A stretch of 64,000 nt of DNA from an uncultured Actinomycetota bacterium. GTDB lineage: Bacteria > Actinomycetota > Thermoleophilia > Gaiellales > Gaiellaceae. The position numbers were made by a program, and so were the translations under genes. Shown one piece after another: positions 1 through 60,705 of the stretch (positions are counted from its first letter, which is position 1; each line of letters begins with the position of its first letter). The stretch spans positions 114,572-178,571 of the forward strand of contig CAVXWI010000001.1 of assembly GCA_963765345.1 (NCBI GenBank). The letters are read 5' to 3'. The notes below the pieces were generated by a model. The model searched no databases. It was not told the DNA's origin and saw only the letters and a program-made list of their open reading frames with translations.

Positions 1-57
1 AGAGTCCCTCGAGATAGAGAGATATGGTCCCAGTCGCTCACGGCGACATGCAGGGAG
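1..57 (+). other. 3' end of a putative group I intron at an L1917-like site in helix 69 of 23S (partial)
   Basis: Positions 1-57 do not match the universally conserved H69 sequence. The stretch ends in a hairpin (gtcgctcacggcgac) plus a short tail ending in G (cagggaG), directly before exon-like aactgcctaaggtagcg. Its layout parallels the 3' end of the second insertion. Confidence 0.45.
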
Positions 58-90
58 AACTGCCTAAGGTAGCGAAATTCCTTGTCGGGT

Positions 91-413
91 AATACGAATC
101 TGCCCGAGCCGGAAGTGATTCCGGTCAACAAACCGGCTAATAACGGAAGAAGCCCTCCTCGTAGTCGCGGCGCTTCAAGGACGCTCGTGGCAGCGAAAGG
201 GTAATCCCGTGGGCAAGTCTGCTCGATCGCACAGAGCTCTGAGTTGACCGTAACCGACTGAATCGTCACACTTGATCGGAACATGAGATCGCATATCGCT
301 CGCGGCCCTCGACACAGGAATCTATGAATGTGATCAGACGCCGGCCCTTGGCAGGAATGCTGCAGCCAAGGTGAAGGGATAGTCTGCGCCTCCGGAAACG
401 GAGGATGAACGCG
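91..413 (+). other. Putative group I intron, 323 nt, at an L1951-like site of 23S (no ORF)
   Basis: The insertion splits the invariant GGGU|AAGUUCCGACC. The upstream exon ends in U (pos 90) and the insert ends in G (pos 413), matching group I splice-site rules. The 3' region has a P9-like GNRA hairpin cctccgGAAAcggagg followed by a short tail. It is too short to encode a homing endonuclease. Confidence 0.65.
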
Positions 414-3601: not shown

Positions 3602-4348
3602 ATGGAGCTCGGGCTGACGGACAAGGTGTGCGTCGTCACCGGCTCGACCGAGGGGATCGGGCTCGAGACCGTCGTCCTGCTCCGGGCCGAAGGGGCGCGG
3701 GTCGTGAGCGCGAGCCGGGGCGAGGAAGGGCCGGGCGACCTCCACATCGCCGCCGACCTCTCACGCCCCGGCGAGCCCGAGCGGGTCGTCGACACGGCCC
3801 TCGAGGCGTTCGGTCGCGTCGACTGCCTCGTCAACAACGTCGGTTGGGCGGAGATCCACCGCTTCGAGGAGCTGACCGAGGAGATCTGGGAGCGCTCCTG
3901 GCAGATCAACCTGATGAGCGCGGTGCGTGCGACGAAGGCCGCTCTGCCGCCGATGCGCGAGCACGGCGGCGGCGCGATCGTCAACGTCTCCTCGACCTCC
4001 GCCAAGCGGCCCTCGGTCGGCATGCCCGAGTACTCGGTCACGAAGGCGGCGATGCTCTCGTACTCGCGGCTCGTCGCCGACCTCTACGCGAAGGACGGCA
4101 TCCGCTGCAACGCCGTCACGCCTGGCCCCACCGCGACGCGCGCCTGGCTCGGCGAGGGTGGGCTCGCAGACCAGCAGGGCGAGCGCGACGAGGTGTTTGC
4201 GAAGGTGGGCGCGGGTCGGCCGCTCGGACGCCTCGCGGCCCCGGCGGAGATCGCCGCCGTGATCGTCTTCCTCTGCTCCGACCGGGCGAGCTACGTCACC
4301 GGTGCGGCCTGGAGTGTCGACGGCGGCACCGTGCCGATCATCATCTGA
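3602..4348 (+). CDS. SDR family NAD(P)-dependent oxidoreductase
   Basis: TGSTEGIG Rossmann motif, NNVG, and catalytic YSVTK (YxxxK). Confidence 0.85.
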   Translation: MELGLTDKVCVVTGSTEGIGLETVVLLRAEGARVVSASRGEEGPGDLHIAADLSRPGEPERVVDTALEAFGRVDCLVNNVGWAEIHRFEELTEEIWERSWQINLMSAVRATKAALPPMREHGGGAIVNVSSTSAKRPSVGMPEYSVTKAAMLSYSRLVADLYAKDGIRCNAVTPGPTATRAWLGEGGLADQQGERDEVFAKVGAGRPLGRLAAPAEIAAVIVFLCSDRASYVTGAAWSVDGGTVPIII

Positions 4349-4408: not shown

Positions 4409-5362
4409 ATGTTCCCGCCCGGAGGCCTTCTTGCGGACTCGTTCGCCGAGCGGATGCGCAAGATCGAGGAGGAGAGCCTCTCGCCGCTCGCCGTCCGGTC
4501 GTACGAGACGCGCGGACGGCTGCGGGCAGAAGCCGAATCCGACGTGCGCACGCCGTTCCAGCGGGACCGCGACCGGATCGTGCATTCGAAGCCGTTCCGG
4601 CGCCTGAAAGGAAAGACGCAGGTCTTCATCGACCCCGCCGGCGATCACTACCGCACGCGGATGACGCACACCCTCGAGACGACCGGAATCGCACGGGTCG
4701 TCGCCCGCGCGCTGCGGCTGAACGAGGATCTCGTCGAGGCGATCGGGCTCGGGCATGACACCGGGCACACGCCGTTCGGCCACGCCGGCGAGGAGGCGCT
4801 CGACGCCGCGCTTGCGGAACGGTTTGGCGGCCGTTTCCACCACAACGAGCAGTCGCTGAAGATCGCCGAACGGCTGAACCTGACCTACGAGGTGCGCGAC
4901 GGCATCCTCACCCACACCGGCGACCGCGAGCCCGAGACGCTCGAGGGGCGGATCATCCGGATCGTTGACCGGGTCGCTTACATCAACCACGACATCGACG
5001 ACGCGATCCGCTACGGGATCCTCTCGGAGGGAGATCTGCCGCGCGAAGAGATCGAGATCCTCGGTCCGACCGGCTCGAAGCGGATCGACCGGCTCGTCCA
5101 CGACCTGGTCGAGACGTCCTCGGCGGAGGGCGAAATCGCCCAGAGCGCTGAGATTGGCGGCGCAATGCTCTCGCTGCGAGCGTTCATGTTCGAGCGGGTC
5201 TACCTCGGCCCGGAGACCGAGGTCGAGCACCAGCGGGCGTACGCCACGATCCGGGCGATCTTCGAGACGCTGGCCGAGCGTGGGGAGGGGCCGGAGGTGA
5301 TTACCGAGTTCATCTCGGGCATGACCGACCGCTACGCGCTGACGTACGCTGCTGCTCTCTGA
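4409..5362 (+). CDS. dgt: dGTPase-like HD-domain phosphohydrolase (short Dgt)
   Basis: FQRDRDRIVHSKPFRRLKGKTQVF, the HD motif in THTLETTGIARVVA...GLGHDTGHTPFGH, and FHHNEQSLKIAERL. Its stop overlaps the dnaG start (tgATGg). Confidence 0.85.
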   Translation: MFPPGGLLADSFAERMRKIEEESLSPLAVRSYETRGRLRAEAESDVRTPFQRDRDRIVHSKPFRRLKGKTQVFIDPAGDHYRTRMTHTLETTGIARVVARALRLNEDLVEAIGLGHDTGHTPFGHAGEEALDAALAERFGGRFHHNEQSLKIAERLNLTYEVRDGILTHTGDREPETLEGRIIRIVDRVAYINHDIDDAIRYGILSEGDLPREEIEILGPTGSKRIDRLVHDLVETSSAEGEIAQSAEIGGAMLSLRAFMFERVYLGPETEVEHQRAYATIRAIFETLAERGEGPEVITEFISGMTDRYALTYAAAL

Positions 5363-7018
5363 TGGCGCGAATCAAGGACTCGACCGTCGAGGCGGTGCGC
5401 CAGAGCGCCGACTTCGTCGCCATCGTCGAGGAGCGGACACCGCTGCGGAAGTCGGGCGGCGCGCCTCGTCGGGCTCTGCCCCTTCCACGACGAGCGCACG
5501 CCGAGCTTCTCGATCAATCCCCTCGACAAGCTCTACTACTGCCACGGCTGCCACAAGGGTGGCGACATGATCGGCTTCGTCCGCGACACCCAGGGGCTCG
5601 ACTTCGTCGAGGCGATCGAGTGGATCGCCGGCCGCTCGGGAATCACGGCCGAGTACGAGGAGGGCTCGCCGGCGGAGGACGCAAGGCGCCGTCGCCGCGA
5701 GCGGCTGCTCGCGGTCCTCGACGACGCCGCGTCCTTCTACGAGCGCTACCTCTGGGAGAGCCAGGCCGGCTCGTTCGCGCGCGACTACCTCGCCGGGCGC
5801 GGCCTGCACGAGCCGGTCTGCCGCGAGTTCCGCCTCGGTCTTGCCCTCGGCGGCACGACGCTGACCCGCAAGGCCCTCGACCGCGGTTTCAGCGCTGAGG
5901 AGCTGCGGGCGGCCGGCCTGACGCGCGCGCGGGGCGGCGACTACTTCGAGCGGCGCCTCGTCTTCCCGCTCACCGACGCACGCGGCCACGTCCTCGGCTT
6001 CCAGGCGCGCCGGCTGCACGACGACGATCCGCTGCAAGCGAAGTACGTGAACACGGCCGAATCCGAGCTCTTCACGAAGGGGGCGATCGTCTACGGCCTC
6101 GACAAGGCCCGCCTGGCGATCTCACGCGAGGACCGGGCGTGCATCGTCGAGGGCAACACCGACGTGATCGCGCTCCGCCAGGTGGGGTTCGAGCCCGTCG
6201 TCGCGTGTATGGGGACGGCGCTCACCGAGCAGCAGCTCCGCGAGCTCGCCCGGCTGACGAGGCGGCTCTGGCTCGCGTTCGACGGCGACGCGGCAGGAGA
6301 GTCGGCGGCGCTGAGGGGAATGGAGCTGGCAGTCGCGCACGGGTTCGACGTGAAGGTCGTCGCCCTGCCCGCCGGGATCGACCCCGCCGACGATCCGGCC
6401 GGGTTCGAGGCGAGGCTCGGCGCCGCCAAGCCCTACGTCCTCTACCGCGCCCAGGTCGAGGCGAAGCGCGCGGACGACCGCGAAGCGGGACGGCGAGCGG
6501 TCGAGGCGTTTCTCGCGGGAGTTCCCGACTCGCTCGACCGCAGGGCCGCCCAGCGCTGGGCGAACGACTTCTTCGGGATGCCGATCCAGCTTCGCGGCGG
6601 CGGGACGGCGACCGCGGCCACGGCGCCCTCACCGCGCGTCGTCGCGGCCGGCGACCGGGTCGAGCGGGGCGCGCTGGCCGGCGTCGTCGCACATCGGAGC
6701 CTCGTACCGGTCCTCGCCGAGATCACGCCGGAGCACTTCCGGGACGAGAGGAATCGGGCGCTACGCGAATACCTCGTCGACGGCGCCGCCGCCGAGCCCG
6801 ATGTCTTGGCGCTCCTCGCCGAGCTCGACGCGTGGGCGCCTCGGGAGGGGATCGACAAGGCGACCGCGGAGGAGTACCTGCTCAGGCTCCGCGAACGCGA
6901 GCTCTGGGCGGAGCTGCGCACCGCCGGGATCGAACGGACGAAGGAGCTCCGCGAGGCCCTCGCACGGATCGAGGGCGCGATCGCCGGGCTCGGCGCGCAA
7001 ACGACGACGCCGGGGTGA
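5362..7018 (+). CDS. dnaG: DNA primase DnaG (contains an apparent 1-nt frameshift near 5462)
   Basis: The N-terminus MARIKDSTVEAVRQSADFVAIVEERTPLRKSGG is followed, in the +1 frame, by the zinc-binding RLVGLCPFHDERTPSFSINPLDKLYYCHGCHKGGD, then the TOPRIM and C-terminal domains (5567-7018). The frames cross in a gcgcgcc run. Confidence 0.85.
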
Positions 7019-9053: not shown

Positions 9054-9517
9054 GTGGAGTCCAGCCAAGGCTGTTGCCGGAGAATCGCGCCTAGGGGATA
9101 CCTAGGGTCATGGCGCCGAGGCGCGAGAGCCTGGCCAGCCGTGTGAGCGGTCGCCGTTGGCCGAATTGGGCTGCGGGCCCGGAGGGCCTGCGCTCACTGC
9201 TCGGCAAGATCCAAGGATTCTCAAGCATGCCGGATGCCCTCGACTTCACGGTGCCCGCGGCAATATCCCGCCGCGGTTCCGTACGAGAAGAGGTGACGCT
9301 GGTTGTGAAGCCCGCATAACGGGCATGGTGCAGTGGGGGCCGCAGGGGGAAGTCCGCAAACCCCCACCGCAGCAAAGGGGTTCACCCTCCGGTTAGATGT
9401 CCCTCCCCGCGGTTGCAGGCCGGGGTCACGGGATGCACGGCGGCCGCTCGGCCGTGGCATCCATTACCCGACCCGGGGTCAGACCGGTAGACGGCGTTGA
9501 ATCCAGCGATCTGAGCG

Positions 9518-11642: not shown

Positions 11643-11715
<73 letters not shown>

Positions 11716-14460: not shown

Positions 14461-14544
14461 TGCGGATGAGAGGACTTGAACCTCCACGTCCAAAAGGACA
14501 CACGGACCTGAACCGTGCGCGTCTACCAATTCCGCCACATCCGC
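14461..14544 (-). tRNA. tRNA-Leu (CAG)
   Basis: GCGGATG acceptor, anticodon loop UUCAGGU, long variable arm, T-arm GGTTCAAGTCC. Confidence 0.9.
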
Positions 14545-38422: not shown

Positions 38423-40283
38423 GTGCCGACCCCCGAGGTCACCGCTGCGCTGAAACGGCTCCCGGCCGGGCCGGGCGTCTACCTCTTCCGCGACGAGCGG
38501 GACGAGGTGCTCTACGTCGGCAAGGCGAAGTCGCTGCGTCCCCGCGTGCGTCAGTACTTCCAGGCCGGGCGGAGCGACAACCGCCTCGGGATCGACCAGC
38601 TCGTCGACCGGGTCGCGCGGATTGAGACGATCGTCACCGGCACAGAGGTCGAGGCGCTGCACCTCGAGCAGAACCTCGTCAAGCGGCACCGGCCGCCGTT
38701 CAATGTCCGGCTGCGCGACGACAAGTCGTTCCCGTACATCGCGGTCACGCTCGAGGACGACTACCCGCGCGTCATGTTCACGCGCAAGCGCCATCGCCGC
38801 GGTGTCCTCTACTTCGGGCCGTACGCGAACGCGAAGAAGGTGCGGGAGACGCTCGACGTCCTCAATCGCGTCTTCCGCTACCGCCCCTGCGAGGGGCCGA
38901 GCCCCGGCCGCCGCAGCGGCGTGCCATGCCTCGACTACCACATCGAGCGGTGCCTCGCGCCGTGCGTCGGCTTCGTCTCGCAGGAGGACTACCGGCAGGT
39001 GATCGACGGCGTCGTCGAGTTCCTCTCGGGCAACGACCGGCCGATCAGGGCCGAGCTCGAGCGGCAGATGCGGGCGGCCGCGGCCGAGGAGCGCTTCGAG
39101 GATGCGGCCCGCTACCGCAACCGGCTGCATGCGGTCGAGCGGCTCGCCGAGCGCCAGGCGGTCGAGCGGGCCTCGATCGGGACGATCGACGTGATCGGCC
39201 TCGCGGTCGGAGGCCGAGCGTGCCGCCGTGCAGGTGTTCCCGCTCCGCGAGGGCCGCATGGTCGACCGCTACTCGTTCCACCTCGAAAACGCGGCGGGCG
39301 ACGACCCGCTCGAGGTGCTGGAGGGCTTCTGCCTCGAGTACTACGGCCAGGCGCCCTCGGTGCCGCCGCAGATCCTCGTCCCGCGGGATCTCGGCGAGCT
39401 CGGCTCGCTCGCGGGGTTCCTCTCCGAGCTGCGCGGCTCACGGGTCGAGGTGCGGGCACCGGAGCGGGGGGAGAAGCGGCGGCTCCAGGAGCTCGCCCAG
39501 CAGAACGCCGAGCTCGCGCTCTCCTCCGAGTCGTTCGTCGCCGAGACGAAGCGGCTGCGCCGCGTCGAGGCGCTCGAGGAGCTGCGCGAGGTGCTGAACC
39601 TGGAGGCGCTGCCGCTGCGGATCGAGTGCTTCGACATCTCCAACATCCAGGGCCAGGAGATCGTCGGATCGATGGTGGTGTTCGAGGACGGGGTCGCGCG
39701 GAAGTCCCACTACCGGAAGTTCGCCGTCCGCGGCCAGGCCGGCCAGGATGACTTCGCCGCGATCGCCGAGGTCGTCTCGCGCCGGTTCGCCCGGCTCGCC
39801 GCCGGTCTCGGCGCCGCCGACTACGACGAGTCGTTCGCCTCGACGCCGAACCTCGTCGTGATCGACGGCGGCAAGGGCCAGCTCGCGGCAGCGCTCGCGG
39901 CGATGAGCGCCTACGACCTGCCGCGCGTCGCGGCGGTCTCGCTCGCCAAGCGGGTCGAGGAGGTCTTCCTGCCCGAGCGGGCCGCGCCCGTGCTCCTGCC
40001 CGACCACTCGCCGGGCCTCCAGCTCCTGCAGCGGCTCCGGGACGAGGCGCACCGCTTCGCGATCACCTTCCATCGCTCGCGCCGCGACCTCGCCGCGCGC
40101 GAGTCGATGTTCGACCAGCTCGACGGGGTCGGGCCGGTGCGGCGGCGGGCGCTCCTCCGCCACTTCGGCTCGGCCGAGAAGCTGCTGACGGCCTCGGCCG
40201 AGGAGCTCGAAGGCGTTCCGGGAGTGCCGGCGAAGACCGCCCGTTCGATCTACGCCCAGCTCCACCGGGCCGGCAGGGCGTAG
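38423..40283 (+). CDS. uvrC: Excinuclease ABC subunit C UvrC (apparent 1-nt frameshift near 39210)
   Basis: GIY-YIG N-terminus (GVYLFRDERDEVLYVGKAKSLRPRV...), Cys-rich region and UvrBC motif in frame 1. RNase-H-like and HhH domains (…NIQGQEIVGSMVVFEDG…LDGVGPVRRRALLRHFGS) are in the frame of 39228..40283. Confidence 0.85.
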
Positions 40284-55871: not shown

Positions 55872-55944
55872 GCGGGTGTAGCTCAGTTGGTAGAGCATCA
55901 GCTTCCCAAGCTGAGGGTCGCGAGTTCGAGTCTCGTCGCCCGCT
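55872..55944 (+). tRNA. tRNA-Gly (CCC)
   Basis: GCGGGTGTAGCTCAGTTGGTAGAGCATCAGCTTCCCAAGCTGAGGGTCGCGAGTTCGAGTCTCGTCGCCCGCT; anticodon loop UUCCCAA. Confidence 0.9.
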
Positions 55945-60410: not shown

Positions 60411-60436
60411 GGCGTGGACTCCTTTGACATCTCGAC

Positions 60437-60485
60437 TAGGAGCCATCAGCCGTGACGGCGGTTCTAGGCGAGCCCCATCGCCAGT
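60437..60485 (-). promoter_or_regulatory. Fluoride riboswitch (crcB RNA motif)
   Basis: The mRNA-sense sequence GGCGAUGGGGCUCGCCUAGAACCGCCGUCACGGCUGAUGGCUCCUAG matches the crcB consensus GGnGAUGGnnuuCnCC..AACCGCC..GCUGAUGAUnCCU. An aaggag RBS and the crcB ATG follow. Confidence 0.8.
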
Positions 60486-60705
60486 ACACAGCGTACCGGC
60501 GTGCGGCCCCGAATGCACGCGGTTGGGATGATGGCGACGTAGGAGTGCACGCCAGGCCCGGTTTTCGCCGGGTCACGCCACGAAACCATTTCCCGACCGC
60601 GGCCGCGCTTGAGCTGCCCCTCCCCTCCGGTCGAGCTCGATGCCGCCGTTTTCGTCGCCGCGGCGCCGCGGGATTCACGAGATCTTGCAACAATCATGGC
60701 TGAGC

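Follow-up and report, generated by a model that had tools for sequence, protein, structure and literature searches.

Group I introns in bacterial 23S rRNA genes

Group I introns in bacterial large subunit (LSU) rRNA genes have been described at L1917 and L1951 in Coxiella, at L1931 in Simkania, at L1917 and L1931 in Thermotoga, and at L1917, L1931 and L2593 in thermophilic cyanobacteria, with up to three per gene (PMC1995217, PMC4990558). The Coxiella L1951 intron is 720 nt long and carries a LAGLIDADG open reading frame (ORF) of 157 amino acids. In Synechococcus sp. C9, the LSU gene is interrupted by three group I introns (L1917, L1931 and L2593), and the one at L2593 combines a short P2 with a P7.1/P7.2 extension of ~65 nt (PMC1995217). 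The Candidate Phyla Radiation (CPR, or Patescibacteria) harbors rRNA genes with many group I introns each, in which single-domain LAGLIDADG genes are frequent, and rRNA group I introns are treated as a hallmark of this group (PMC11270868). Outside the CPR, the described cases are only Coxiella, Simkania, Thermotoga and a few thermophilic cyanobacteria (PMC1995217).

Here we analysed a 64,000-nt stretch of DNA (the window; positions 114,572 to 178,571 of contig CAVXWI010000001.1, assembly GCA_963765345.1) from an uncultured actinobacterium, which opens inside a 23S rRNA gene. In the part seen, this Gaiellaceae 23S rRNA gene very probably carries three group I introns, inserted after U1923, U1951 and U2500. 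Our literature searches found no paper on rRNA introns of Thermoleophilia, Gaiella or Actinomycetota, and those for L1923 and L2500 returned unrelated matches only.

Three insertions in the conserved core of the 23S rRNA gene

The Rfam LSU alignment left the start of the window unaligned and contained two internal gaps of ~320 nt each. Exon blocks were set by aligning the window to the 23S rRNA gene of E. coli (locus L001:551-3453, in which the local numbering is standard E. coli minus 1) and to an intron-less relative. Where a shared A or C left the junction base ambiguous, coordinates were chosen by the group I rule of a U before the insert and a G as its last base. The gene was divided as follows:

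1-1677, + strand: bacterial 23S (LSU) rRNA gene, 5'-truncated, 3' ~1060 nt of the gene (Rfam LSU, 912.8 bits)
1-62, + strand: 3'-terminal part of the group I intron that follows U1923 (L1923), aligned to the L1923 intron tails of relatives
~16-30, + strand: J8/7 and P7 3' strand of the L1923 intron (AGAGAGAUAUGGUCC)
35-55, + strand: P9 region of the L1923 intron, around loop GGCGAC (42-47)
62, + strand: omega-G of the L1923 intron
63-90, + strand: 28-nt mini-exon C1924-U1951 (CCUAAGGUAGCGAAAUUCCUUGUCGGGU), an exact match to the intron-less reference, in E. coli numbering
91-413, + strand: ORF-less group I intron at L1951, 323 nt, mapped by E. coli alignment
414-962, + strand: 23S exon A1952-U2500 (Rfam LSU; alignment to E. 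coli and to the intron-less reference)
963-1277, + strand: ORF-less group I intron at L2500, 315 nt, inserted after U2500 by alignment to E. coli
1278-1677, + strand: 23S exon C2501 to the 3' end (Rfam LSU; alignment to E. coli and to the intron-less reference)

Three inserts are thus delimited, at 1-62 (cut by the window edge), 91-413 and 963-1277. The exons of the window are contiguous on both the intron-less Gaiellaceae reference and E. coli at 1923/1924, 1951/1952 and 2500/2501, and removal of the inserts yields a canonical 23S sequence. At exactly the position that follows E. coli U1951, the 91-413 insert separates GGGU from AAGUUCCGACC. The three sites belong to the universally conserved core, the most conserved and functionally central part of domains IV and V, and L2500 adjoins the peptidyl-transferase-centre residue A2503. 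No credible ORF was found in 91-413 or 963-1277, the ORFs listed there being antisense high-GC artefacts.

An earlier interpretation made from the letters alone (the sequence-only reading) had taken the start of the window as non-rRNA sequence, which the Rfam LSU and intron-tail alignments confirmed, and had proposed two group I introns in an actinobacterial 23S rRNA gene. The kind of element was borne out. So was the ORF-less intron at L1951 (91-413), by alignment and covariation, together with its marks: an exon ending in U, an insert ending in G and a GNRA-capped P9-like hairpin before the 3' end. The count has to be raised to three, the L2500 intron (963-1277) having gone without mention.

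Group I structure and covariation

A metagenome scan for the exon-intron signature matched at least 120 contigs. Among the matches listed were 110 complete L1951 introns (107 unique), with a terminal G in 107 of the 107 unique sequences; ~34 of these introns were ORF-less (240-380 nt) and ~75 of the 110 were 700-830 nt long. Thirty-two ORF-less L1951 introns were aligned with MAFFT (alignment A5), and RNAalifold recovered the group I helices from them. RNAalifold cannot draw the P3/P7 pseudoknot; its spurious invariant pairing in A5 (exon UGUC with J8/7 GAUA) was replaced by P7, added as a pseudoknot, and in A6 it spuriously paired P3 with the 3' exon. P10, for which no common register could be fixed in the family, does not enter the counts. 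The named structure (P1-P9 plus P7.1, P7.2 and P9.0) comprises 87 pairs in 16 helices. In the L1951 copy of the window, its elements, taken from the letters and from an unconstrained minimum free energy fold, are placed as follows:

102-107: internal guide sequence GCCCGA, pairing with exon UCGGGU (85-90, the last 6 nt of the mini-exon) as P1, with U90·G102
109-114/119-124: P2, GUGA loop
133-137/340-344: P3
143-146: P4 (ACGG/CCGU)
P5: extended by P5a/b
256-259/381-384: P7 (GACU/AGUC)
between P7 and P3': P7.1/P7.2
346-352/365-371: P8
372-380: J8/7 (UGAAGGGAU)
386-388/410-412: P9.0 (GCG/CGC)
389-394/399-404: P9, a GAAA-capped hairpin 9 nt ahead of the intron 3' end
413: omega-G

Across the 32 L1951 homologues, 96.3% of the cells were paired, compared with 34-43% when the partners were slid, and 48 of the 87 pairs showed compensatory change. 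The compensated cells numbered 331 versus 92±9 in shuffles, and none of the 500 shuffles reached any of the measures. Most of the covariation was found in P2, P6, P7.1, P7.2, P8 and P9. P3 changed from C-G to U-A in three sequences, and P4 and P7 (4 bp) were invariant, so that P7 is uninformative. The private indels of the window copy led MAFFT to misalign its row of A5 in P6-P7 (columns ~155-222), where this row counts against the structure. The P1 wobble U·G with the internal guide was present in all 32 L1951 homologues and in 13 of 13 L2500 homologues, and the omega-G is present at positions 62, 413 and 1277 of the window. The IA-type arrangement, with P7.1 and P7.2 hairpins between the P7 5' strand and the P3 3' strand (A5 columns 204-303), was recovered with compensatory change in five of the five P7.1 pairs and 10 of the 13 P7.2 pairs.

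The L2500 intron shares the core of the L1951 intron (GGCUAAUAACGG ... AUAGUCUGCGCC), with 75% column identity between the two. Its P1 is formed by exon CACCU and intron C1 pairing with GGGGUG, its P9 has a GUAA loop, and the window copy contains a hairpin GGCCC-GCAA-GGGCC and a second one closed by GUAGCG/CGCUAC. In the RNAalifold analysis of the 13 L2500 homologues, compensatory change was seen in 23 pairs. The L1951 and L2500 introns of the window, both ORF-less, belong to one IA-type ribozyme lineage with a P7.1/P7.2 insertion. The L2500 intron is longer in locus L003 (811 nt) and locus L005 (824 nt), and the L003 copy carries a LAGLIDADG_2 ORF (PF03161, E=1.7e-18). Locus L014, an Actinomycetes contig from a metagenome-assembled genome (MAG), has two divergent rrn operons ~0.5 kb apart, whose slightly different L2500 introns measure 303 nt (306-608, - strand) and 306 nt (6337-6642, + strand).

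The inserts might instead be intervening sequences (IVSs) or expansion segments, either removed by RNase III without ligation, which would leave a fragmented 23S rRNA, or retained in the rRNA. Such elements are known from bacterial 23S rRNA, for example in Coxiella and Salmonella (PMC4990558), and a 44-62-nt extra segment of the relatives near position 273-277 may be one of them. However, IVSs occur as one long processing stem in variable helices such as H9, H25 or H45, whereas the present inserts fold into a multi-helix core, not a single stem, and occur beside H69, within H71 and, close to A2503, in the peptidyl-transferase loop. The full-length matches to the group I model, the covarying P1-P9, the U·G wobble and the terminal G also argue against this explanation, as do the homing-endonuclease genes in the introns of relatives, and we regard it as very improbable.

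The L1923 intron tail and the mini-exon

The site of the upstream intron is deduced from relatives. In loci L002 and L003, the exon AACUAUAACCGU (to U1923) is followed by a 699- or 698-nt insert ending in AACUG and then by CCUAAGGUAGCG. Positions 1-62 of the window align to the last ~60 nt of these two introns via AGAUAUGGUCC...GGCGAC...GGG..AACUG. The terminal G is found in 17 of 17 related L1923 tails, AACUG directly precedes CCUAAGG in 16 of the 17, and the complete examples all follow U1923. The family P9 covaries around the GGCGAC loop (CCUCAC/GUGAGG, CCUCAU/AUGAGG, CCCUAU/AUAGGG and CCCCAU/AUGGGG); the hairpin that had been drawn at 33-47 (GUCGC/GCGAC) is not this one, which has the general form CCUCAY/RUGAGG. 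The full L1923 intron of L002 encodes a 215-aa LAGLIDADG_1 ORF (PF00961, E=1.4e-12), whose best single-domain solved relative is I-CeuI (2ex5; 81.5 bits, E=6.8e-22), and other L1923 alleles are ORF-less (236-246 nt). The window copy, represented by its last 62 nt, cannot be called ORF-less, since any ORF-bearing part would lie upstream of the window.

The sequence-only reading had placed this intron at L1917, ending at position 57, followed by a perfect exon of 33 nt (58-90) that was 1 nt shorter than expected, perhaps by an assembly indel. Since bases 58-62 (AACUG) are intronic, the intron ends at 62 and the mini-exon is 63-90 (28 nt); the apparent shortening is a boundary error that needs no indel. 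In favor of L1917 are its documented use in bacteria (Coxiella, Synechococcus C9 and Thermotoga subterranea; PMC1995217), a G at base 57, and the indel errors that the assembly of the window does contain. Yet the junctions of the complete relatives follow AACUAUAACCGU (1923), and AACUG immediately before CCUAAGG is the rule in related tails. The uninterrupted sequence of the lineage (locus L004) is AACCGUCCUAAGG, with AACCGUCC as the H69 3' strand; AACUGCC of the window differs from both this strand and E. coli, and would require a substitution plus a deletion in a universally conserved helix. The exon preceding the intron would end in GUAACUAUAACCGU for L1923 and in GUAACUAU for L1917, and we consider the latter placement highly unlikely.

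Points against the intron reading and the quality of the window copy

Several observations weigh against the reading of three group I introns. The matches to Rfam Intron_gpI (RF00028; window search space 1400 nt) all score below the gathering score of 50 bits: 21.1 bits for the L1951 intron (match 56-405, the whole model length; E=0.01 with permissive filters), 31.4 bits for the L2500 intron (E=8.4e-6) and 30.1 bits for the full L1923 intron of L002 (E=1.1e-5). The 5' junction of the L1923 intron lies outside the window, its site being taken from relatives by sequence comparison, and its P9 is imperfect (mismatched) in the window. Splicing here is deduced from DNA sequence. The window L1951 copy has private changes at otherwise invariant P6 and J6/7 core positions: it reads GGGC for GGG and UUGACC--GUAACCGACUG for UUGACCCCGUAAC-GACUG, a motif found in 88 loci, in none of which the window version occurs. 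These changes are unique among the ~110 homologues listed, and they cut the base stem of P6 from three G-C pairs to one. Private indels of this copy include those at 148, 163-166, 185, 214 and 250-255. Compared with L002, 25 of 56 gaps fall in positions 1-365 of the window. Moreover, a 1-nt insertion at 5461 splits dnaG (5362-7018), which is intact in L002 (551 aa). This copy of the L1951 intron may be impaired, or its consensus may be erroneous.

The single Intron_gpI model is weak on divergent subgroups. The matches are full-length with significant E-values, and they align the J8/7-P7 box (GAAG..AUAGUC) and the J3/4-P4 box. The Rfam check that had been suggested for the inserts thus gave covariance-model matches of sub-threshold score, and it is covariation that carries the fold.

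The private changes could mean that the introns are real but that the window copy at L1951, and perhaps at L1923, is decaying and splicing-defective, which would make this rrn copy non-functional or trans-dependent. Private indels in the P6 3' strand, J6/7 and the P7 5' region, extra bases in P5b and J4/5, their uniqueness among the homologues listed and the mismatched L1923 P9 all fit a decaying allele. However, identity to L002 is 99-100% in the exons and the L2500 intron (99% for the latter), whereas a dead rRNA gene should drift everywhere. The unconstrained minimum free energy fold of the window L1951 copy still recovers P1, P2, P3, P4, P5, P8, P9 and P9.0, and the dnaG frameshift in the same assembly makes consensus errors the simpler explanation. 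Decay is accordingly an unlikely alternative; a consensus error, or a mosaic of strain alleles, is the simplest reading of the core defects. Part of the divergence between the window and L002 is real: the window L1923 tail shares GGCGACAUGCAGGGA with the L1931 intron of L004 and not with L002, and its P9 3' strand matches the L004 L1931 allele.

This mosaic-like character of the first ~400 nt, and the difficulty of assembling rRNA operons from metagenomes, could also be read as signs of a chimera in which foreign sequence was joined into the rRNA operon. We find this scarcely credible, given that independent assemblies of many samples, from long as well as short reads, repeat the same three insertions at the same nucleotides, and that the exon junctions are base-precise. 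The reading retained is that of three group I introns, in a copy whose consensus needs care.

Other irregularities were observed in the same assembly. The uvrC gene (38423-40283) switches frame near 39200, and frameshifts also look present at 2679 and 3382; such frameshifts in essential or conserved genes are likely to be assembly indel errors. Besides dnaG, other genes that L002 has in intact form are broken in the window by single-base indels. Positions 9108-9265 show 12 gaps against L002 in ~160 nt, all of them deletions in the window (11 of one base and one of two bases); either the consensus is locally of low quality, or the sequence is non-coding and divergent.

Distribution among relatives

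An exact-match search with the SDR protein encoded at 3602-4348 gave no result. Named homologues of the dGTPase-like protein at 4409-5362 come from Gaiellaceae MAGs and are 81-83% identical to it; an ENA contig of 283 kb carries a 99% match. Such neighboring proteins place the host in the Gaiellaceae (Thermoleophilia, Actinomycetota), in agreement with the actinobacterial origin proposed earlier. The dGTPase homologues led to syntenic rrn loci, sampled regardless of introns, that hold whole rrn operons, with 23S gene lengths of 4308, 4791 and 3779 nt. L002 is 98.15% identical to the window over 11.6 kb. The window, L002 and L003 all carry introns at L1923, L1951 and L2500, L004 and L145 carry one at L1931 only, and L146 at L1931 and L2500. 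All six of the syntenic Gaiellaceae rrn loci sampled thus contain one to three introns between 1917 and 2500, and some MAGs contain four or five. In 63 loci with an L1951 intron, H69 is intact and without the L1923 intron. Among relatives, these introns occur in varying combinations, some with and some without LAGLIDADG genes. Rarity among bacteria, as had been stated for such introns, holds for described bacteria but not for the uncultured relatives of this lineage, in which they are common.

A 24-nt core signature of the ribozyme occurs in 19 species-representative genomes, in which it sits at L1951, L2500, L2511, ~L2552 and the sarcin-ricin loop. Nearly all of them are MAGs of Actinomycetota, Thermoleophilia, Gaiellaceae or Solirubrobacterales. 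Two others of the 19 are L018 (labelled Patescibacteria) and L020 (a 764-kb chromosome, probably of Patescibacteria). Their introns (L018:5138-5379 and L020:3922-4177) are AT-rich, have the same core boxes and are located at ~L2552 and the sarcin-ricin loop, which hints, on sequence grounds, at a cross-phylum spread of one ribozyme lineage. No copy of the signature was found in the viral (phage) contigs searched. Taken together, the Thermoleophilia, a free-living lineage abundant in soil that includes Gaiellales, Solirubrobacterales and relatives, may be a hitherto undescribed hot-spot of rRNA group I introns outside the CPR, with one IA-type lineage occupying no fewer than five 23S sites and present in two genomes of likely Patescibacteria, pointing to site-hopping and cross-phylum transfer; we give this wider interpretation an even chance.

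On a 2.2-kb contig binned as Thermosynechococcaceae (L022), another of the 19, the flanks of an L2511 intron are the same as in the Actinomycetota MAG L007, and the two have similar isolate names (YX2bin24 and YX3bin19). The contig is probably mis-binned.

At the single boundary by which the exon is restored, many LAGLIDADG-bearing L1931 inserts in Gaiellaceae-like loci (L004:5515-6305, L146:2582-3368, L005, L040, L053, L070, L127 and others) do not finish with a G. Their ends consist of a conserved (G/A)UAAG plus 4-7 variable nt, for example UAAGACAUC followed by AGCG.

Proposed splicing mechanism and origin

Both the chemistry and the order of splicing are proposed here from the intron family. 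Each intron would fold into a P1-P9 core, in which the last U of the exon is paired, within P1, to a G of the internal guide. The attack after that exon U would come from a free guanosine bound in P7. The terminal G of the intron would then take the guanosine's pocket, positioned by P9.0 and P10, and the freed 3'-OH of the exon could attack after this G, ligating the exons to a canonical 23S rRNA and releasing the intron. The mini-exon would serve two introns: its 5' part as the 3' exon (P10 partner) of the L1923 intron, and its last 6 nt as the P1 strand of the L1951 intron.

Intron-encoded homing endonucleases, the mark of mobile introns, are found in the introns of relatives and are lacking in 91-413 and 963-1277 of the window. 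Because this ribozyme lineage often carries a LAGLIDADG gene in relatives, the window L1951 and L2500 copies most likely descend from mobile introns that lost their endonuclease gene.

Genomic context

The 23S rRNA gene is followed by a 5S rRNA gene, and further RNA elements were detected by Rfam:

1747-1863: 5S rRNA (Rfam)
11643-11715, - strand: tRNA gene
14461-14544, - strand: tRNA gene
55872-55944, + strand: tRNA gene
60430-60491, - strand: fluoride riboswitch (crcB motif), 51.4 bits, exceeding the gathering score

Three of the syntenic loci also contain an extra segment of 44-62 nt in 23S domain I near E. coli position 273-277, upstream of the region seen in the window (L002:3237-3298, L003:2100-2143 and L004:3775-3818), which is probably a lineage expansion segment or an IVS.

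Comparison with known systems

For the window itself, the outcome is mostly a correction (L1923 rather than L1917, three introns rather than two) and a warning on consensus quality. Beyond it, multi-intron 23S rRNA genes in a common soil lineage would offer ample natural material for following how introns are gained and lost, how their endonucleases decay and how they move to new sites, with more than 100 L1951 alleles from one metagenome scan. Short-read assemblies can be interrupted by intron-bearing 23S genes of 4.3-4.8 kb (L147 and L148 stop at the operon). Such genes may be wrongly labelled by rRNA annotation programs in which colinearity is assumed, and 23S-based primers and probes could be affected.

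The element is of a well-known kind and the Gaiellaceae are a new host lineage for it; L1923 and L2500 are absent from the list of non-CPR sites in PMC1995217. The Coxiella 23S rRNA gene shares with the window a very short exon between two ribozymes. Its two introns had been cited as ORF-less precedents, whereas the L1951 intron is listed with its 157-aa LAGLIDADG ORF (PMC1995217). On the basis of site and listing, not of sequence, the partner intron is at L1917 in Coxiella and at L1923 here, the mini-exon is 34 nt versus 28 nt, and the L1951 intron is 720 nt with an ORF versus 323 nt and ORF-less. The host of the former is an intracellular gammaproteobacterium and that of the latter a free-living soil actinobacterium, and the window gene, unlike that of Coxiella, has a third intron at L2500.

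Synechococcus C9 is likewise outside the CPR and has three introns per 23S gene, and its L2593 intron has the same architecture as the window L1951 and L2500 introns. All three sites differ, however, and the cyanobacterial introns all contain full LAGLIDADG genes, compared with none in two of the three here.

The chloroplast LSU intron of Chlamydomonas eugametos that encodes I-CeuI is inserted at what we take to be the same site, L1923. The LAGLIDADG_1 ORF of the L002 intron is single-motif, and its likeness to I-CeuI is one of structure-sequence match, not of phylogeny; the I-CeuI system has an organelle host rather than a bacterium, and the window holds the last 62 nt of its L1923 intron. 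With the CPR, finally, the common ground is the multiplicity of group I introns in one rRNA gene, frequently accompanied by single-domain LAGLIDADG genes, and the 24-nt core signature that L018 and L020 share with the window introns, although the introns of these two are AT-rich and at other sites, and the host here has a normal-sized, high-GC actinobacterial genome.

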